Both the position numbers and the translations under genes were made by a program. 64,000 bases of DNA from a virus (lineage: Duplodnaviria; Caudoviricetes): positions 64,001-128,000 of IMG/VR virus record IMGVR_UViG_2595698868_000001. One strand, written 5' to 3'. A model generated the notes under the pieces. It did no database searches and had not been told where the DNA came from. It saw only the letters and a list, made by a program, of their open reading frames with translations. This document shows positions 2,893 through 62,921 of the stretch, piece by piece. Numbering within the stretch: position 1 is the stretch's first letter; the number at the start of each line of letters is the position of its first letter.

Positions 2893-4092
2893 ATGTCCCA
2901 CTTCGCCCTCGTGGTCGTGACGACCACCAACTCGAAAGATCAACTCAAAGAGGTGCTTCAGCCCTTCCACGAGTTCGAGTGTACCGGCATCAGCGATCAA
3001 TATGTTGTCGAGGTCGATGACACCGACGAGAAGCGCGCGTCGTACGAGACCGCGAAACGTCGCCGTTACCGTTCGCCGGACGGAGCCCTGCACGATCCGT
3101 ACGACAACATCTACTTCCGCGATCTCACGGCTGATGAACTCAAGCAGGCCGGTACCGAGAAATTCGCCCGCATCCCAGGCCTGTTCATCCACGACCAGGA
3201 CTGGAATGACGGGCGTGGATATCGCTCGAAGGTTCACTTCGTGCCGACGGGCTGGGAAGATGTCGAAGTTCCCGTCAAGGAGTTCTCCTCGCTCCGCGAC
3301 TACATCGCCGACGAAACGGATCGCAAGGTCATCGTTCAAGGCGGGCTGCCTGACTACGACGATCAGCACAAGCATGGTTACACGATCGTCGACGCCAAGG
3401 GTGAGGTCGTGAAGACGGTGCGTCGCACCAACCCGAACGCCAAGTGGGATTGGTGGGAGATCGGCGGTCGGTATCGCGGGCGTCTTCTGTCCAAGGGCGT
3501 CTTCGGTTACCAAGGTCGGCCGGGCACCTTCAATAACGACACCTACCACCAGGGCGGCAGCGACGGCCTGCTCAAGGGCGAGATCGACTTCGAGCGCATG
3601 CGCAGGCTGAACGTCGAGAAGCACCTGGGTTTGGTGGAGGAGGCGTACGCCAAGATGGGCGACGTGTCCCGCGAAGAAGTCAAGGCGCTCTGCATCGAAT
3701 ACGCTGACCTTTTCAACAAGGTCATGCGGCCGAAGTTCGCCGCGATCGACGCCGGCACCTGGAAGGACGGCAACGTCTGGGAAAAGGCGAACGCCGAAAG
3801 TCCGCGCTTCGAGGAACTCGGCAAGCTCCTCGACCCCTTCTACGACTACTTCAACGGCGCCGGCTTCGATCGTGACATCGGCGATCCCTGGGCCTGGGCG
3901 GAGGCCATCCCGCCGCTGACCGCTTACGCCTACCTGGGTACCGATGGTGTCTGGCGCGCCTCGGGCGAGATGGGCTGGTTTGGCATTTCGTCCAAGGAAA
4001 AGGACTCGGGCGAATGGAATCGCGAGTTCGCCAAGGCCCTCGCTGCCGTGCCGGATCACCACATGATCTGGGTGGTCGACTGCCACATCTGA
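2893..4092 (+). CDS. hypothetical phage protein
   Basis: 399-aa ORF with NPNAKWDWWEIGGRY segment and C-terminal VVDCHI; GGAG RBS. Confidence 0.8.
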   Translation: MSHFALVVVTTTNSKDQLKEVLQPFHEFECTGISDQYVVEVDDTDEKRASYETAKRRRYRSPDGALHDPYDNIYFRDLTADELKQAGTEKFARIPGLFIHDQDWNDGRGYRSKVHFVPTGWEDVEVPVKEFSSLRDYIADETDRKVIVQGGLPDYDDQHKHGYTIVDAKGEVVKTVRRTNPNAKWDWWEIGGRYRGRLLSKGVFGYQGRPGTFNNDTYHQGGSDGLLKGEIDFERMRRLNVEKHLGLVEEAYAKMGDVSREEVKALCIEYADLFNKVMRPKFAAIDAGTWKDGNVWEKANAESPRFEELGKLLDPFYDYFNGAGFDRDIGDPWAWAEAIPPLTAYAYLGTDGVWRASGEMGWFGISSKEKDSGEWNREFAKALAAVPDHHMIWVVDCHI

Positions 4093-4100
4093 AAAAAGTT

Positions 4101-4145
4101 TGCCGGAATAGTTGACACGTTTCGGCAAGTGTGAGACACACAATC
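4101..4145 (+). promoter_or_regulatory. putative promoter of the tRNA operon
   Basis: TTGACA at 4112-4117 within a variant of the recurring TGCCAGGAATCTTGAC motif; -10 element unclear. Confidence 0.55.
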
Positions 4146-4147
4146 CC

Positions 4148-4243
4148 ATGATGACCTATCGCAACAACGTGCGCCAAATTCGAGTTCGCCAGTTTAACTT
4201 GGCGGGCCGTTCGCACGTGGGCGATGGAGGCAGCGAGGGTTAA
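4148..4243 (+). CDS. attenuator leader peptide MMTYRNNVRQIRVRQFNLAGRSHVGDGGSEG
   Basis: 31-aa ORF between promoter and terminator; codons 4-17 are all cognate to downstream tRNAs; overlaps attenuator segments 1 and 2. Confidence 0.75.
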   Translation: MMTYRNNVRQIRVRQFNLAGRSHVGDGGSEG

Positions 4244-4272
4244 GCCCTCAGGCACCATCAAACAGATCGAGC

Positions 4273-4311
4273 GAAGGCCCGCCAGGAACCCCTGGCGGGC
4301 CTTTTCTTTTT
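4273..4311 (+). terminator. intrinsic terminator (attenuator 3:4 hairpin)
   Basis: GAAGGCCCGCCAGG-AACC-CCTGGCGGGCCTTT followed by TCTTTTT. Confidence 0.85.
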
Positions 4312-4364
4312 CCACTTTCCGATCCGAGGAGATCGTCATGAACAACGGCGGGTAACCGCCTTCT

Positions 4365-4450
4365 GGGTAGGCATCGGGCACGAGTGAGCCCAACCGACTG
4401 TAAATCGGCCGCGAAAGCTGTGAGGGTGCGAATTCCCTCCCTGCCCTCCA
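4365..4450 (+). tRNA. tRNA-Tyr(GTA), atypical
   Basis: Acceptor GGGTAGG/CCTGCCC, anticodon loop CTGTAAA, long variable arm, CCA; T loop TGCGAAT and U73 are atypical. Confidence 0.8.
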
Positions 4451-4451
4451 T

Positions 4452-4526
4452 CCCCATGTAGCTGAGACAGAGTAGCGCCAGAGTGAAATCCTGGAGACGG
4501 AGGTGCGAGCACTCTCGTGGGGGCCA
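4452..4526 (+). tRNA. tRNA-Phe(GAA), atypical
   Basis: CCCCATG/CGTGGGG acceptor, loop GTGAAAT, CCA; degenerate T arm. Confidence 0.7.
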
Positions 4527-4534
4527 TTTTCAGT

Positions 4535-4609
4535 GGCAGGTTAGTTCAGAGGTAGAACGCCGCTATGACATGGCGGATGTCGGGGGTTCAATTCCCTCAC
4601 CTGCTACCA
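4535..4609 (+). tRNA. tRNA-Val(GAC)
   Basis: Cloverleaf, loop ATGACAT, TTCAATT T loop, ACCA end. Confidence 0.88.
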
Positions 4610-4610
4610 T

Positions 4611-4686
4611 CCTAGTGTAGCTCAGTTGGTAGAGCAGCGGATCGATAATCCGCCGGTCGCCGGTTCGATCCCGGCCGCTAGGTCCA
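4611..4686 (+). tRNA. tRNA-Ile(GAT) (C33 variant)
   Basis: TAGCTCAGTTGGTAGAGC D arm, GCGGA-TCGATAA-TCCGC, GGTTCGATCC, CCA. Confidence 0.85.
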
Positions 4687-4694
4687 GTTTCTGA

Positions 4695-4770
4695 TGGGGC
4701 ATAGCTCAGGGGTTAGAGCGCGCGCTTGATAAGCGTGAGGCCGTTGGTTCGAGACCAACTGTCCCTACCA
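4695..4770 (+). tRNA. tRNA-Ile(GAT)
   Basis: Cloverleaf, CGCGC-TTGATAA-GCGTG, ACCA end. Confidence 0.88.
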
Positions 4771-4804
4771 AACAAAGGCCGGCGCGGAGATGCGCGCCGC
4801 CTAA

Positions 4805-4880
4805 CGCGAACGGGCCAGATGGGACGGCAGGGGTGTCACATACCTCGATTGACTGTGTTCGATTCACAGGTTCGCGACCA
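4805..4880 (+). tRNA. tRNA-Val(CAC)
   Basis: CGCGAAC/GTTCGCG acceptor, GGGGT-GTCACAT-ACCTC, CTGTG-TTCGATT-CACAG, ACCA. Confidence 0.8.
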
Positions 4881-4887
4881 AGTTTCT

Positions 4888-4961
4888 TGGGGGATCGTCT
4901 AATGGTAGGACGGTAGAGTCTGGTTCTACAGATATAGGTTCGAGTCCTATTCCCCCATCCA
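4888..4961 (+). tRNA. tRNA-Gln(CTG)
   Basis: TGGGGGA/TCCCCCA acceptor, GTAGA-GTCTGGT-TCTAC, T arm, CCA. Confidence 0.88.
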
Positions 4962-4967
4962 AGTTGT

Positions 4968-5041
4968 TCTCGGGTGGTCTAATGGTAGGACATCTGGTTT
5001 TGGTCCAGAGGGTTGGGGTTCGATTCCTTGGCCGAGAGCCA
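4968..5041 (+). tRNA. tRNA-Gln(TTG)
   Basis: TCTGG-TTTTGGT-CCAGA anticodon arm, T arm, GCCA. Confidence 0.88.
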
Positions 5042-5053
5042 ACTTGTTCTTGA

Positions 5054-5142
5054 TCTCATGTGGCGGAACTGGTAAACGCACCGGACTGTTAATCCGGCGT
5101 CTCGCAAGAGACTTGGGGGTTCGAAGCCCTCCGTGAGAGCCA
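5054..5142 (+). tRNA. tRNA-Asn(GTT) with class II long variable arm
   Basis: TCTCATG/CGTGAGA acceptor, G73, CCGGA-CTGTTAA-TCCGG, variable hairpin GTCTC-GCAA-GAGAC. Confidence 0.8.
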
Positions 5143-5171
5143 ATATGTCGCAGCTTCGGCTGCGGCGAAAT

Positions 5172-5255
5172 GCCCTGGTAACCCGGCGCGCACTACGAAT
5201 GCGCGAGCCGTAGCTGGAGTTGAAAAGGCTGGTTCGAATCCAGCCCAGGGCGCCA
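5172..5255 (+). tRNA. D-armless tRNA-Arg(ACG)-like
   Basis: GCCCTGG/CCAGGGC acceptor, CGCGCA-CTACGAA-TGCGCG, GCTGG-TTCGAAT-CCAGC, GCCA; only 8 nt where the D arm should be. Confidence 0.65.
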
Positions 5256-5259
5256 ACAT

Positions 5260-5337
5260 AGCGATGTAGCTCAGTGGATTTAGAGCGTTCCCCTACGAAG
5301 GGAAGGGTCGGGGGTTCGAGTCCCTCCATCGCTGCCA
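5260..5337 (+). tRNA. tRNA-Arg(ACG)
   Basis: Canonical cloverleaf, TTCCC-CTACGAA-GGGAA. Confidence 0.92.
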
Positions 5338-5342
5338 ACCTC

Positions 5343-5425
5343 AGCGTACAGGCCGAGCAGGATTATCGTCAGGCGCCGCCCTCCGAAGGCGGAGAGGCCC
5401 GGTTCGAGTCCGGGGTACGCTGCCA
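5343..5425 (+). tRNA. tRNA-Arg(CCG)
   Basis: AGCGTAC/GTACGCT acceptor, CCGCC-CTCCGAA-GGCGG, enlarged D loop. Confidence 0.85.
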
Positions 5426-5708
5426 GACATTGAGAGTTGACAGGCATTTTTAGGCAGCCTATATCCTCTCAAGTGAATTCCAAGCCCGCACCGGGATCGC
5501 TCAGGCGATAAGGCGGGCCTGGGCCTCCTGATCGTCAAGCAGAGCCCCCGCGTGGTCCCGGTCCGCGCGGGGGCTTTGTGATTCGGGCTTATCCTGAGTC
5601 AAGGTATTTATAGTTGACAGACAAGTGCCAGGAATCTTGACTCTCCAGGTCGATTCTACTACCGTGCGCTGCATCAACAACGCGTAGCTACCGTCGGGGA
5701 CGAAGGCT

Positions 5709-5873
5709 GTGTCGGATAACGACAAGGGCCAAACGGTGACCCCCGAGGCCCAAGCTGAAAACCAGGGACAGCAGCGTTTCTACGCGCTGCTTAACGAACT
5801 TCGGGCAGCACTGCGCCGTCCGTCGACGGAGGCTCATACACCCAACCTGGATGTCGAGACCGATCATGGCTAA
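5709..5873 (+). CDS. small hypothetical protein (54 aa, GTG start; not in ORF track)
   Basis: Open frame VSDNDKGQTVTPEAQ...VETDHG whose stop overlaps the next ATG; lies downstream of the motif at 5626. Confidence 0.5.
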   Translation: MSDNDKGQTVTPEAQAENQGQQRFYALLNELRAALRRPSTEAHTPNLDVETDHG

Positions 5874-6345
5874 CCAACCGAATGGAGCAGCGCAGGCCGA
5901 TCGCGTGCGGGAGATCGAGATGCGTCTTTGGGAAGAGGTGGGCACCCAACTCAAGGGTGTCACGGAAGCTATGAAGGAACTCGCGCTCGAAATGCGCGAT
6001 GTTCGTGAACGCCTCATTCGTATCGAGGCCCAGGATCAGCCCAAGAAGCTGGCGAGCCTGGAAGAAGACCTGCGCGAGACGCAAGACGAGATTGCGCGCG
6101 TCGAAAAGGACGCAGCGGACGATCTGGCCCGCGCCACGGCGGTCCATCATCAGGAAATCGGCCTGATCAAGTCCCAGGCCACGGCCGACATTGCCCGCGT
6201 CGAGAAGACTGCGGCCGACGACAAGCTTGCGCTCGAAAAGCGCCTTACCCGCATGGAGATGATCATCGCGCCGCTGACCTGCGCCGGCGGCGCCCTGCTG
6301 GCGACGATCATCACGATCTTGGTTCAGAAGTTCACGGGAAGCTAA
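5866..6345 (+). CDS. coiled-coil protein with C-terminal transmembrane helix
   Basis: Heptad-rich body followed by hydrophobic IIAPLTCAGGALLATIITILV. Confidence 0.75.
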   Translation: MANQPNGAAQADRVREIEMRLWEEVGTQLKGVTEAMKELALEMRDVRERLIRIEAQDQPKKLASLEEDLRETQDEIARVEKDAADDLARATAVHHQEIGLIKSQATADIARVEKTAADDKLALEKRLTRMEMIIAPLTCAGGALLATIITILVQKFTGS

Positions 6346-6454
6346 ACTACCTGCGGTCGTTTGCCGCAGCAGCTTCACAATAGGAAGTAGCTTGTGGCTT
6401 CACCAGGGCAAGGGTAGCTTAAACGCTATACCAACGCGCCCTCGGAGGGGACAC

Positions 6455-6691
6455 ATGATTAGCGCCGCTGCCGTTCTGGAATTTCAGGACGACCAAGAAC
6501 AAGAAACGGCGCACACCGCCGACGACTACCAAACGAATCTGATCCGACTGAGTTCCGAGTTTTTCTCACTCATTCAGGACGATGTGACGGAAGAGGGTAA
6601 GCGCCGCCTGGGCGATCTCCACCGAGCGATCGGGGTCGATCTCCAAAAATTCCGTAAGGCTTCCGTCATGGAGGGTCTTGCGGCCATCTAG
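6455..6691 (+). CDS. hypothetical protein
   Basis: GGAGGG RBS before ATG 6455. Confidence 0.65.
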   Translation: MISAAAVLEFQDDQEQETAHTADDYQTNLIRLSSEFFSLIQDDVTEEGKRRLGDLHRAIGVDLQKFRKASVMEGLAAI

Positions 6692-6717
6692 TTCCTTACG
6701 CCGCAAGGGAGCGACGT

Positions 6718-7542
6718 TTGTCCGAAGCTTTTGAGTCTCACTCGTTCGACGATTCCACGTTCGAGCGTCCTCCCACCAAGTCTAAGGCGCAGGCGCGCGC
6801 TGAACGCCGCGCCGAACGAGCGTCAAAGCAGGCGGAGCATCGCGCTCCGCCGCTGGTGCCCAAGACTGAGAACCAGCGCGAGTACATCGAAATTCTCCGC
6901 GACGCCAATAGCTGCATCGCGCTCGGCCCCGCCGGCACCGGCAAGACCTATATCGCCGCCCGCATCGCGGCGCAGCGCAAGATGGCGGGCCATGTCGACA
7001 AGATCATCATCACTCGCGTGAACGTCTCCAAGCGCGAGCACGCCCTGGGCTTTCTGCCGGGCAACATCGACGCCAAGATGAAGCCCTGGATGACTCCGGT
7101 TGTCGAAGGCCTGCGTGCCGAGGTGTCGGCCAAGGTCATGGACACCTGGAAGGCCGCCGGCGAGTTCGAGATCGTGCCCTTCGAGTTCATGCGCGGGCGC
7201 ACCTTCGACAACGCCTTCGTGATCCTCGACGAGGCTCAGAACGCGTCGTTCGACGACCTGGAACTGTTCGTGACCCGTACCGGTCAGGGTTCGCAAGTCG
7301 TGATCTGCGGCGATCCCGGCCAGATCGACATCCCGAACTCCGGGCTGGAGATCATCACCGACATCGCCGAGGAAAACGGAATCGTCGACACGATCGAGTT
7401 CACCGAGGAAGACGTCGTTCGCTCGGCCGAGGCGAAGGCCTGGGTCAAGGGCATCGCGAAGTACAAGCGCGCCAAGGCTGCGGCCGGTGGCGATGCACGG
7501 AATCTTGACGGTGTCAACCGTTTCATCCATTCTGGGAATTAA
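6718..7542 (+). CDS. phoH: PhoH-family ATPase
   Basis: GPAGTGKT, LGFLPG, MRGRTF, ILDEAQN and GDPGQID motifs. Confidence 0.93.
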   Translation: MSEAFESHSFDDSTFERPPTKSKAQARAERRAERASKQAEHRAPPLVPKTENQREYIEILRDANSCIALGPAGTGKTYIAARIAAQRKMAGHVDKIIITRVNVSKREHALGFLPGNIDAKMKPWMTPVVEGLRAEVSAKVMDTWKAAGEFEIVPFEFMRGRTFDNAFVILDEAQNASFDDLELFVTRTGQGSQVVICGDPGQIDIPNSGLEIITDIAEENGIVDTIEFTEEDVVRSAEAKAWVKGIAKYKRAKAAAGGDARNLDGVNRFIHSGN

Positions 7543-59434: not shown

Positions 59435-60043
59435 TCATTCGGGAGCCGGCGAAGTCGCCGCCTGCTTGAGGTCGAAAAGGTGGAAGAAGAGGTCGCGGCA
59501 GTCGATCACGTCGCCGATGGCTTGGTGGGCGTCGGTCGGTTCACGGCCGAGCAGGTGGGGAATCGCTTGCTCCAGCTTGGGCCACGCGAACTCACCGCTA
59601 CGCTTCCACTTGCTCGGGAACTTGCAGACCGGCGTCGCCGCCAGCATGGTGCAGAAGGTCTTCTTTTCGGCGAAGACGTTCAGCACCGGGTTGCCCGAGA
59701 TCAGGCGCGCGGCGTTGTTGATGACGTTGATGTCGAACTCGATGTTGTGCGCGACTACCAGATCGGAGCCGAGGAGCATGTCGCAGAAGATGTCCAGCGC
59801 CGGGTCTTCGAAGACGCCGAACTTTTGAGACACTTCGGTGGACGTGCCGTGGACCTTCACCGAGGCCTCCGGAATCTCCTCCTTGCGATAGACGATCAGG
59901 TTGATGCTCTGGAGGACGCGGCGGGTAGCCGGGTCCACCTGCATCGCCGCAAGCTGGACGATGCGCGGCTGATCTTCGTGGCCGCAGGGCAGGTTCTTGT
60001 CCCAGAGGCCGGTGGTTTCGGTGTCGAAGAACAGGATCGCCAT
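59435..60043 (-). CDS. DEDDh 3'-5' exonuclease (DnaQ-like)
   Basis: DTETTG, AHNIEFD and AHQAIGD. Confidence 0.88.
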   Translation of the reverse strand: MAILFFDTETTGLWDKNLPCGHEDQPRIVQLAAMQVDPATRRVLQSINLIVYRKEEIPEASVKVHGTSTEVSQKFGVFEDPALDIFCDMLLGSDLVVAHNIEFDINVINNAARLISGNPVLNVFAEKKTFCTMLAATPVCKFPSKWKRSGEFAWPKLEQAIPHLLGREPTDAHQAIGDVIDCRDLFFHLFDLKQAATSPAPE

Positions 60044-60554: not shown

Positions 60555-62921
60555 TTAGTGCGTGTCAGACCACCGATTACCGAACTGCACATCCACGTCG
60601 ACGGGGCAGCGGAAACCGAACTGCATACCGGCGTCGTAGGCAGCCGTGGTGATGTTGCGCTTGCAGATTTCCATGATTTCTGGATCATCGCGGACCGCGA
60701 CCTGGAGTTCGTCGTGAATCCACGCCAGGATGGCGAAGTGCCCATCCCATCCGTGGATCAGCCCGTCCTCCAAGCAGTAGTCGTAGAAGTTCACGCACCA
60801 CTGCTTGGCGATGGTCGCGCCGGCGCCTTGCAGCAGCGTGTTCAATGCGGCGTGCTGGGCGCGGACGAACAACTTGCGACCGTCCAAGGCATCCAGCATG
60901 CCAGACTTGGCCTCGCGCTGGATGTTCTTGACGACCTGACCCAGAGCGGGAATGCGCGTCATCAGGCGGCGGCGCATTTCGGCCCCGACGCGCTTGGCTT
61001 CCTGCGGCTTCATCGCCAGCGCCGGGTCGATGACGGTGCCCAGCTTGAAGTCCTGGGCGCCGTAGATCAGCGCGTAGATGAAGGTCTTGGCGGTGTCGCG
61101 GCTCTGGAGTTCCAGCGCGGCCGTGTGCAGGTCGTGGGGGTCGGAGTCAACAACCAGCTTGGCATAGACGCCGTTATCGAACTCGGCCATGAAGTGGCCG
61201 AGCGCACGCAGTTCAATGCCCTTTTGGTCGGCGCCCATGAGCTTCCAGCCCTTGGGGACATAGAAGAGCTTCCGGCAGTCGTAACCATGATCGCCGATGC
61301 GTCCGGTCAGCTTCTGCTTCTTGGTCTCGACCTTACCCTCGGCGTCCAGCACGAACTCGCCATGCTCGTCACGCTTGGGCGTGCCGAACAGTTGCTTGCC
61401 GTCAGGACCGCACAGCGGCGTCAGGTTCTCATCGTAGCCGATTTCCTCGCCGGCCTCGTTGAGGATCGGGATGCCGTAGATGATCTTGCCCAAGCGGAAG
61501 CGCGGCACGACGCCTTCTTCCACCCACTGCGCCAGCTTCTTGAAGACGACGCGCGGGACCTGCGCGATATTGGGATCGCTATGCGATGCACGATTCGTGA
61601 CTGTTCCGCCCACGTTGAAACGCGGGTGGATGCAGCCGTCATTACGCTCCATCGCCTTGCCGATCCAGCCGTTCTTGCCATCAACAAGCTGCCCAAGGCG
61701 CTTGTTCAGGTAGAACAGTTCGGCCAGTTCGTCGCAGATCGGGATCGTATGCGCCAGATCGCGCAGGACTTCGTCGTTAACCGCCGGCTGGCCGGTTTCC
61801 GTGAAGTCCTGAGGTTCCCACTGGTAGTTGAACTTCAAGCGGTCGATGATCTGCGGACGGCTGCCGGGGTTGAAGTCGGTGAGTTCCACCGGGCAGTACG
61901 GGCAACCTTCGGTGCGGTCGCCGCCCTTAGACCAGTCCTTGAACTTGACCGACTTCTTAGGGACCGTGATGTCGGCCCAGGCTTCACGCGAGTTGTCTTC
62001 GCCGTATTCGGTCTGCGGACGATAGGCAACCTTGGTCTTGAGCGGCTTGCCGTCGTCACCCAGGACAGGCTGGCCCGCCTCGTTGAGGACGGGCGTCGTG
62101 TACTCCTTGCCGATGACCTTTCGCTTGGACGGAATCCACCACTTGCCGAAGTGGGCGACAGCCTTGGCTTCCTTGACCTCGACTTCGGCGCGCAGTTCGG
62201 CTTCCAGTTCGCGGGCGGCATCGATGTCGAACGGGAAGCCGTTGTCGGTGACCTCGGCCATCAGCGCGTGGATGCGGTGCTCCAGCGTGATCGCGTCGTC
62301 CGAGTGGCGGCGCGGGTTGGCGACCATCAGGTGCCAGAGGGCTTCGTTGACGTTCAAGTCCTGAACGCAGTAGTCCTCCATCTCCTGGTTCCATTCGGAC
62401 CAGACGAGGCGGGTGACTTCGTCCTTGGCGAGGCCGGGATAGTTGGCCTTGATCTCCTCAGCCTTGGCCTTGGAGTAGTCGCCCTTGTGCAGGCCCAGAC
62501 GCTGACCCCAGGCTTCCAGGCCGTGACGACCGATCTGACCGCCGTCCAGTTCGCCACGCTTCCAGCGGCGGAAGTCCCGCTCCTTCTCGTCGGCGAAGAA
62601 GACGCGACTCAACACCATCGTGTCGCGGATCAGGGCGTTGACCTGGAACTCCGGATAGAAGAGTTCCAGCGCCGGGATATCGAACTCGACGATGTTGTGG
62701 CCGACGAGAACCTCGGCCTCGTTCAGCATCTGGATGCCGCGCGGGATGGTGTTCGTGCGCTTGTTCTGGCGGAAGACGTAGGTCTGCCGCGTGTCCAGGT
62801 CGCGGATCGCGAGGATATGGACACGCGACTTGACGGGATCGTCGCGATTGGCGCGCAGGTAGTCAAGAAGGCCCGTCGTTTCGATATCGAACAGGTAGCG
62901 CTTGCCGGCAGGGATGTACAT
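60555..62921 (-). CDS. family A DNA polymerase (T7-like)
   Basis: DIETTG and GHNIVEFD exo motifs; DQKGIELR (A), AKTFIYALIYG (B), WIHDELQ (C). Confidence 0.95.
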   Translation of the reverse strand: MYIPAGKRYLFDIETTGLLDYLRANRDDPVKSRVHILAIRDLDTRQTYVFRQNKRTNTIPRGIQMLNEAEVLVGHNIVEFDIPALELFYPEFQVNALIRDTMVLSRVFFADEKERDFRRWKRGELDGGQIGRHGLEAWGQRLGLHKGDYSKAKAEEIKANYPGLAKDEVTRLVWSEWNQEMEDYCVQDLNVNEALWHLMVANPRRHSDDAITLEHRIHALMAEVTDNGFPFDIDAARELEAELRAEVEVKEAKAVAHFGKWWIPSKRKVIGKEYTTPVLNEAGQPVLGDDGKPLKTKVAYRPQTEYGEDNSREAWADITVPKKSVKFKDWSKGGDRTEGCPYCPVELTDFNPGSRPQIIDRLKFNYQWEPQDFTETGQPAVNDEVLRDLAHTIPICDELAELFYLNKRLGQLVDGKNGWIGKAMERNDGCIHPRFNVGGTVTNRASHSDPNIAQVPRVVFKKLAQWVEEGVVPRFRLGKIIYGIPILNEAGEEIGYDENLTPLCGPDGKQLFGTPKRDEHGEFVLDAEGKVETKKQKLTGRIGDHGYDCRKLFYVPKGWKLMGADQKGIELRALGHFMAEFDNGVYAKLVVDSDPHDLHTAALELQSRDTAKTFIYALIYGAQDFKLGTVIDPALAMKPQEAKRVGAEMRRRLMTRIPALGQVVKNIQREAKSGMLDALDGRKLFVRAQHAALNTLLQGAGATIAKQWCVNFYDYCLEDGLIHGWDGHFAILAWIHDELQVAVRDDPEIMEICKRNITTAAYDAGMQFGFRCPVDVDVQFGNRWSDTH

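Follow-up and report, generated by a model that had tools for sequence, protein, structure and literature searches.

A candidate leader-peptide attenuator ahead of a twelve-gene tRNA operon in a giant Caulobacter phage

An operon of 12 transfer RNA (tRNA) genes in a giant Caulobacter phage is probably gated by a ribosome-mediated (leader-peptide) transcription attenuator, a reading to which we assign a probability of roughly three in four. The operon and its control region lie in a stretch of 64,000 nucleotides (nt), called the window below, which comprises bases 64001-128000 of a genome of 279,967 base pairs (bp) (IMG/VR record IMGVR_UViG_2595698868_000001). The region contains a promoter, a short open reading frame (ORF) rich in codons for the operon's own tRNAs, a set of alternative RNA helices and an intrinsic terminator, followed by the tRNA genes. 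An attenuator of this kind had been proposed in an initial annotation of the sequence, which named the comparison of homologous loci as the test that could refute it; in that comparison the leaders, their reading frame, the helices and the tracking of tRNA blocks all came out in its favor. The start of the transcript, the translation of the leader, the termination event and the response to tRNA supply are what we infer from the sequence. The elements of the region are these:

4112-4140, + strand: promoter, with TTGACA at 4112-4117, a 17-nt spacer and GACACA at 4135-4140, the hexamer ending 7 nt 5' of the ATG
4148-4243, + strand: leader ORF of 31 codons plus stop, probably leaderless, MMTYRNNVRQIRVRQFNLAGRSHVGDGGSEG
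4157-4198, + strand: regulatory codon run of 14 codons (codons 4-17 of the leader), YRNNVRQIRVRQFN
4156-4227, + strand: hairpin 1:2 (anti-antiterminator, possible pause hairpin), 4156-4192 pairing with 4199-4227 in minimum-free-energy folds
4198-4286, + strand: predicted antiterminator 2:3, 4198-4214 pairing with 4271-4286 as 11 bp, a bulge and 5 bp
4235-4249, + strand: small hairpin containing the leader stop codon, from the predicted fold
4273-4311, + strand: intrinsic terminator 3:4 plus T tract, with a stem at 4273-4304 of 14 pairs, 10 of which are G-C, closed by a 4-nt loop and followed by a T-rich tail
4365-4450, + strand: tRNA-Tyr(GTA), called by ARAGORN at -ps90
4452-4526, + strand: tRNA-Phe(GAA), called by ARAGORN at -ps90, with a weak Rfam score of 30.8 bits
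4535-5337, + strand: tRNAs Val-GAC, Ile-GAT, Ile-GAT, Val-CAC, Gln-CTG, Gln-TTG, Asn-GTT, Arg-ACG and Arg-ACG, called by ARAGORN at default settings
5343-5425, + strand: tRNA-Arg(CCG), the last gene of the operon, called by ARAGORN at -ps90

The content of the leader ORF, which begins 7 nt 3' of the -10 hexamer and is separated from the first tRNA by 122 nt, is the observation from which the attenuator model starts. The initial annotation had noticed that codons 4-17 encode only Tyr, Arg, Asn, Val, Gln, Ile and Phe, precisely the seven amino acids of the operon, and that nearly every anticodon of the operon is addressed; both statements hold on reanalysis. With wobble rules in which G34 reads C or U, C34 reads G, U34 reads A or G, and A34 reads U, C or A, the operon's own anticodons can read 14 of the 14 codons, including those of both Val and both Gln isoacceptors, and the sole codon missing from the run is CGG, that of Arg-CCG. 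The seven-residue set occupies a fraction of 0.314 (31.4%) of six-frame codon positions in the genome, and the 14-codon run is the longest made of this set among all 559,930 such positions of the 280-kb genome. The next-longest runs, of 12 and 11 codons, are both arginine runs in other frames, and runs as long as the one in the leader are expected about 0.05 times genome-wide by chance. The run also lies directly 5' of the one tRNA block in which exactly these seven amino acids are represented. Minor codons were not significantly enriched in the run, 6 of its 14 codons ending in A or T against a third-position G+C content (GC3) of 0.74 in a set of genes chosen as a rough proxy, and searches of Pfam and PHROG with the leader ORF returned no family match.

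Comparison with related phages indicates what has been conserved in this leader. Positions 3000-6500 of the window match Caulobacter phage CcrPW (genus Colossusvirus, subfamily Dolichocephalovirinae) at 94.0% identity over the full length, and match the tRNA regions of phiCbK-type Caulobacter and Brevundimonas phages at 70-77%. Homologous leader units were found by blastn in 45 phage records (35 from Caulobacter phages, 8 from Brevundimonas phages and 2 from Bertelyvirus); a search of IMG/VR with a degenerate leader pattern returned five contigs only (L012-L016) and no additional lineages. We compared 11 representatives, which with the window make 12 loci, and aligned 11 distinct sequences, Swift being identical to Magneto and therefore dropped. 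A homologous leader, an ORF of 31-32 codons at the equivalent place in all representatives, was present in all 12 loci, and in all 12 its codons are enriched for the amino acids of the tRNA block. Stop codons fall in one alignment column, and both of the indels within the ORF are 3 nt long. Across the 14 columns of the run there are at least 13 residue changes (N/Q, N/F, R/Q, Q/N, R/Q, V/F, R/V, Q/R, F/N/V and N/I/Y/F), every one of which stays inside the seven-residue set; among the nonsynonymous single-base neighbours of the run codons, 244 of 1066 (22.9%) lie inside it. This confinement indicates that selection acts on which tRNAs read the run and not on the chemistry of the peptide.

The boundary of the run and its arginine codons are less regular. 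The column immediately after the run holds Arg in 9 of the 11 sequences and leaves the set in the window (Leu) and in CcrPW (Trp). When this codon is counted with the run, CGG occurs 0, 0, 1 and 1 times in the phages with Arg-ACG and twice in each of the five lineages that have CCG without ACG. The tracking of arginine isoacceptors is suggestive only, given the few independent lineages and given that the window has the CCG tRNA yet lacks CGG.

A further comparison comes from phages in which the tRNA genes have been re-assorted. Three more distant CbK-like phages, named in PMC9127768, have their tRNAs grouped otherwise than in the window's phage. In Lacusarx, a leader (MFTRFGKRDRREGERGFSL) in which 15 of 18 codons are in-set (p 3e-5, the best of 8 ORFs) precedes Lys, Lys, Gly, Asp, Glu, Glu, Gly, Arg and Phe tRNAs, and another (MFTQTTLLTQCHYWQLLSSSSL) precedes Ser, Tyr, Leu, Leu, Thr, His, Gln, Ser, Cys and Trp tRNAs with 20 of 21 codons in-set, counting a Tyr tRNA found at relaxed threshold. 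In vB_EliS-L02, a leader (MFNVIAMNNPAPAIMVPVAMACVEGTRD) with 20 of 27 codons in-set, including a run of 19, precedes Pro, Pro, Met, Val, Ile, Ala and Asn tRNAs, and two more leaders match the Lys...Phe and Ser...Trp blocks. When each of the five leaders of these two phages is scored against its own block the values are 15/18, 20/21, 20/27, 15/19 and 22/26, and against the other blocks of the same phage they are 0-7. Two of the five carry the layout TTGACA, 17 nt, TATnnT, 7 nt, ATG.

The genome that contains the window has further tRNA blocks, and two of these are preceded by leaders of their own. A 39-codon ORF (MTFSTHKPSTLKPATGAASLAHASLLTPATSKPSLSRSL) at genome positions 61264-61383, upstream of the window and with the same type of promoter, precedes Pro, Thr, Lys, Leu, His, Ala and Ser tRNAs. 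Of its 38 post-start codons, 35 fall in the set of its own block, a value unique among 258,096 stop-free 38-codon windows in six frames. Homologues of this second leader in nine loci, loci L001-L003 being too short to reach it, have between 33/38 and 42/44 codons in-set. RB23 and CcrSC have a Trp tRNA at the end of the Pro...Ser block, and theirs are the only second leaders with a Trp codon; this co-occurrence is a single event with a chance of about 0.4 per leader and is suggestive only. In nine loci the Glu and Asp tRNAs are preceded by a third leader (MTYLMSLYEREARLGRDTTAA), which is 20-21 codons long and has conserved codons for these two amino acids. No leader was found at the Trp-Gly-Gly block, where the promoter adjoins the tRNA, and the Cys/Met region (genome 131,700-133,700) has TTGAC promoters with no codon-matched leader.

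Several details of these other blocks deserve mention in their own right. The second-leader unit spans genome positions 61186-61498, that is, 2.5-2.8 kb before the first base of the window, and has counterparts at 6590-6727 of locus L004, 7192-7329 of L006 and 1123-1242 of L007. Hairpins 3' of the second leader have poor T tracts here, versus canonical terminators in Swift, Bajun and Kabachok. The third leader lies at genome positions 59957-60022, likewise before the window, and at 5709-5771 of L004; a nested hairpin follows it and is an annotated terminator in phiCbK and Swift. The stretch at genome 131,700-133,700, past the end of the window, contains Cys and two Met tRNAs amid dense structured or tRNA-like sequence.

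The RNA of the leader region is predicted to be unusually well structured. The segment 4126-4320 folds with -86.8 kcal/mol (z = -6.13), and 0 of 200 dinucleotide shuffles did as well. At full length the predicted fold consists of a long 1:2 hairpin, the small hairpin at the stop codon and the terminator. The initial annotation had given segments 1 (4181-4192), 2 (4199-4214) and 3 (4271-4285), and these coordinates are exact; its 1:2 helix, on the other hand, was drawn far too short, the predicted hairpin extending over 4156-4192 and 4199-4227. The 5' arm of this longer hairpin (4156-4192) corresponds to codons 3-15 and so holds most of the run at 4157-4198. If the first 36 or 45 nt are withheld from pairing, to mimic cover by a stalled ribosome, and segment 4 is absent, the 2:3 helix forms instead and the 5' arm of the terminator is sequestered. 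The terminator at 4273-4311, also described in the initial annotation, is borne out both in its stem and T-rich tail and in its conservation, with a predicted energy of -29.7 kcal/mol.

Each of the three helices was then followed through the homologues. Ten of the 11 sequences have a comparable long 1:2 hairpin when folded at full length, while in CcrSC the minimum-energy fold is the 2:3 form. Helices in the window's 1:2 register have 64-81% of cells paired, and two pairs are changed on both sides. When segment 1 is blocked and segment 4 absent, 2:3 is the predicted fold in all 11 homologues. For the antiterminator, 88.6% of cells are paired, versus 50-57% with the partner slid by one column. 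The structures tested on the alignment were all taken from the window itself, and a structure obtained from one member tends to outscore its slid versions. The antiterminator contains three compensated pairs, at one of which eight phages have G-C where Bajun and CcrSC have A-U, and its covariation score was reached by 1 of 500 shuffles, a count that is not to be read as a probability. The terminator has 98.7% of cells paired across the 11 homologues and four compensated pairs. As read from the alignment, segments 2, 3 and 4 are altered together in CcrSC. The stop-codon hairpin, with the stop in its loop or 3' arm, was seen by eye in 10 of the 11 folds, and its stem sequences differ. A cmscan of positions 3500-6500 against Rfam, at E values up to 1, gave no leader-family, T-box or other cis-regulatory match; sub-threshold matches at chance level on the leader and terminator were to ctRNA_pGA1 (27.7 versus 45 bits), Hrs10 and ctRNA_p42d.

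The promoter was called by comparison with relatives and by motif, and not by a generic scan. All 12 loci share the layout of TTGAC(A/G/C), 17-18 nt, TAnnnn or GACACA, 7 nt and ATG. In the window the motif TTGACA-N13-GTGAGA has a single occurrence, where 0.03 would be expected, and on the + strand of the genome it is found only at the promoters of the window's leader and of the second leader. The promoter of the initial annotation is retained, with its -35 TTGACA placed at 4112-4117 and not at 4113. Between the terminator and the first tRNA, the generic scan called no sigma-70-like promoter. Judging from the promoter spacing, the transcript probably starts at or beside the AUG and would therefore be a leaderless messenger RNA (mRNA), which would explain why a Shine-Dalgarno sequence is missing. 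Leaderless mRNAs are well documented in Caulobacter (PMC4117421, PMC8459731). Contigs assembled from RNA sequencing (one study, four runs X1-X4, containing a relative of the locus) run unbroken from 5' of the leader through the terminator into the tRNAs of L015 (3875-5451); they are silent on level, ends and strand, and phage DNA may have been present, so they are neutral evidence.

Are there really 12 tRNA genes with seven amino acid specificities downstream? ARAGORN found 9 of the 12 at default settings and the other three only at relaxed thresholds. Six of the nine default calls exceed the Rfam RF00005 gathering score. Val-CAC (4805-4880) has no Rfam match at E up to 1, and the Arg-ACG at 5159-5255 is 97 nt long by ARAGORN and has only a sub-threshold tRNA-Sec-like match in Rfam. 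Homologues of the three relaxed-threshold genes are annotated in other phages (Tyr in Kikimora and Bajun, Phe in Magneto, Arg-CCG in CcrPW), and a Tyr anticodon stem-loop is found at the equivalent place in all 12 loci. On these grounds the count of 12 tRNAs and seven amino acids made in the initial annotation stands, as nine default calls and three at -ps90 with annotated homologues.

How would these parts work together? RNA polymerase would start at or next to the AUG, and a ribosome would translate the 31-codon leader as the polymerase advances, with codons 4-17 lying in the 5' arm of the long 1:2 hairpin. If decoding is fast, the ribosome would leave the run, 1:2 would re-form behind it, segment 3 would pair with segment 4 and transcription would stop at about position 4311. 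If charged Tyr, Arg, Asn, Val, Gln, Ile or Phe tRNA is short, the ribosome would dwell on the run and cover segment 1; 2:3 would then form, the terminator would be blocked and the polymerase would enter the tRNA genes. Considering that the product of the operon is the very tRNA set sampled by the leader, the circuit would be a negative feedback loop, matching tRNA supply to translational demand during infection.

Several observations do weigh against an attenuator of this kind. The run has a single codon each for Tyr, Ile and Phe, fewer than one would look for in a classical attenuator. Some 30 nt separate segment 2 from the leader stop codon 3' of it, unlike in trp, so that a terminating ribosome would leave segment 2 unmasked and termination in the fast case would have to rely on 1:2 re-forming; a stall at the last two codons of the run, which are near segment 2, might mask that segment instead. 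The -10 hexamer of the promoter is poor, a scan of 3500-6500 for consensus sigma-70-type promoters called none, and with no Shine-Dalgarno sequence at the ORF, translation would depend on the leaderless start. Relaxed ARAGORN thresholds also yield false calls, with some inside ORFs at -ps80. The codon-level match is imperfect in the relatives, where two CGY codons occur in phages whose blocks have only CCT, CCG and TCT arginine tRNAs and no Arg-ACG. The check proposed in the initial annotation, that leader codons should follow the tRNA set in relatives, succeeds for amino acids, with changes confined to the set and five re-assorted leaders following their blocks, and is imperfect at the level of codons. 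The composition of the Glu/Asp leader (3/20 in-set) is not statistically distinctive. Finally, no leader was found at block 1 of Lacusarx (best p 0.11 of 16 ORFs; best of a stop-to-stop scan, 10/15), and the 10 blocks of DSS3P8 yielded none either (lowest p 0.0066).

Could the conserved ORF and hairpin have some other role? Perhaps the ORF is a gene for a small functional peptide, of which the hairpin would be the ordinary terminator; expression of the tRNAs would then come from leak-through or from a promoter that has escaped recognition, and the codon match would be incidental. The conserved length and frame of the ORF fit such a peptide, as do the records that annotate the window's leader or the second leader as a hypothetical protein (several do so for the second) and the assignment of the second-leader homologue of Swift to phrog_12742, a family of unknown function. 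It is difficult to see, however, why the substitutions in the run should be chemically radical (N/F, R/V, F/N/V, N/I/Y/F) and yet all fall in the tRNA set, why three leaders of different composition should each match their own block, or why the match should follow re-assorted blocks in other genera; in addition, no promoter was called 3' of the terminator. We regard the peptide explanation as improbable. Another proposal would make the structure a translation-independent RNA element, for instance a terminator under the control of a protein or a small RNA, or a signal for processing or stability of the tRNA precursor, with the ORF as a by-product. The strength and conservation of the structure and the missing Shine-Dalgarno sequence would agree with this, whereas structure alone explains neither the in-frame indels, aligned stops and conservation of the residue set nor the matched composition of unrelated leader sequences, and no Rfam family reaches its gathering score. 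An element of this type seems very improbable.

A different question is what the attenuator, if it is one, responds to. The same hardware could have host tRNA-targeting immunity (anticodon nucleases, tRNA-inactivating toxins) as its trigger, replacement tRNAs being made only under attack. The hardware would indeed respond, since a ribosome would stall in the run whenever one of the sampled tRNAs was lost; the phage tRNAs cover all 20 amino acids in separately gated blocks, and many are oddly shaped, which could help them to evade nucleases. On the other side, nothing in the sequence points to nucleases over ordinary demand, and the sampled sets span 7 + 7 + 2 amino acids, beyond the few tRNA classes that tRNA nucleases are known to target. 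The feedback model needs no extra assumption, and plain supply-and-demand feedback fits the data equally well or better than an anticodon-nuclease trigger; we therefore consider an immunity-specific trigger unlikely. A broader idea, which we put forward tentatively and consider unlikely, is that each tRNA block is a closed-loop replacement unit, in which the leader senses loss of its own tRNA classes (for example, to anticodon nucleases or tRNA-inactivating toxins) and re-supplies them block by block. If this is true, closed-loop damage sensing would make the attenuators a counter-defence device, beyond housekeeping feedback.

The interval between the terminator and the first tRNA contains one more feature:

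4326-4355, + strand: GAGGAG followed by a 5-codon mini-ORF (MNNGG, stop)

The GAGGAG of this mini-ORF is strongly Shine-Dalgarno-like, and the element ends in a GGCGG/CCGCC hairpin. By eye, similar mini-ORFs (MNNGG, MTGGD, MTGN), each with its ATG after a GGAG-like element, are present in 8 of 11 relatives, and none is found in Magneto, phiCbK or Bajun. At the other end of the operon, a good sigma-70-like promoter (TTGACA, 17 nt, TATATC) at 5428-5460 begins a few bases 3' of the last tRNA and is directed at the downstream genes.

Some of the tRNAs themselves are unusual in shape, including Asn-GTT (5054-5142), with a long variable arm, and the Arg-ACG at 5159-5255. Neither ARAGORN at default settings nor Rfam at E up to 1 detected Tyr (4365-4450) or Arg-CCG (5343-5425). 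The tRNA at 2385-2460 of locus L002 and its homologues in Swift, phiCbK, Rogue and CcrBL10 is Ile(AAT) according to ARAGORN and the CcrBL10 record; the sequence also permits a 4-bp stem with the loop CTGTTAA, that is, Asn(GTT), as at the equivalent position of the window's phage. The last tRNA of the phiCbK block (L006 10161-10238) has the anticodon TCC (Gly), versus TCT (Arg) in Magneto, Swift, Rogue and CcrBL10. In Lacusarx (L020 4729-4775), a terminator-like hairpin with a T tract follows Ser-CGA, the first tRNA of the third block, and precedes the Tyr tRNA.

The attenuator model has well-known relatives. Multivalent leader-peptide attenuators occur in enterobacteria, where ilvGMEDA responds to Ile, Leu and Val and thr to Thr and Ile. 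The phage element resembles these in having, just after the promoter, a short ORF enriched in codons for several amino acids, in placing the regulatory codons in the first arm of alternative 1:2, 2:3 and 3:4 helices, and in having its terminator before the first regulated gene. It differs in its payload, tRNA genes whose product would feed back on its own sensor, as opposed to biosynthetic enzymes; in sampling seven amino acids, mostly with one to four codons each; in being probably leaderless, with a stop codon beyond segment 2; and in being phage-borne and repeated per tRNA block, with no Rfam leader match at E up to 1. The pheST (pheM) leader attenuator controls phenylalanyl-tRNA synthetase and offers a case in which leader-peptide attenuation governs a component of translation that handles the sensed tRNA, although pheST senses a single amino acid, regulates a protein gene and is cellular, not viral. 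T-box riboswitches bind uncharged tRNA directly, without a ribosome or an ORF. They likewise tie read-through to tRNA status via competing terminator and antiterminator helices, whereas the phage element would use an ORF and a ribosome, and it has no T-box match in Rfam at the same E limit.

The nearest published case is the long tRNA operon of Anabaena PCC 7120, which translational stress induces (PMC8421152) and a protein repressor, TrcR, controls (PMC10272220). From these sources it resembles the phage operon as a supernumerary, horizontally mobile tRNA operon that is kept low and raised when translation is impaired, and it differs in being under a protein repressor and not a leader attenuator. 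The words attenuat* and leader are absent from both main texts, as are terminator from that of PMC8421152 and uORF (upstream ORF) from that of PMC10272220. For phiCbK-type phages, the main text of Gill et al. 2012 (PMC3556154) describes annotated terminators and reports that Rfam gave no RNA elements beyond tRNAs; attenuat* and leader do not occur in it, and the supplementary gene annotations, which lie outside that scope, may mention small ORFs. A term search of the available text of the vB_EliS-L02 paper gave no leader-peptide control of tRNA genes. The initial annotation had known of no attenuation at a phage tRNA array, and our search of the published literature, judged largely from abstracts, likewise found no description of leader-peptide control of tRNA genes.

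What would such a circuit mean for these phages? The control of tRNA genes in bacteria and phages is usually placed at their promoters, and leader-peptide attenuation is a textbook device of amino-acid operons. In the phages described here that device appears to have been rewired, so that the ribosome would gauge its own reading speed over a panel of codons and the output would be the cognate tRNAs, a direct loop between supply and demand. If this is true, it would account for the dosing of the many tRNAs of large phages and for the division of the genes into fixed blocks. It would also provide a natural multi-codon sensor of tRNA availability, and one that is easily testable in a model host, Caulobacter with its phiCbK-type phages. 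The presence of the same design in two further genera suggests that it may be a general strategy.

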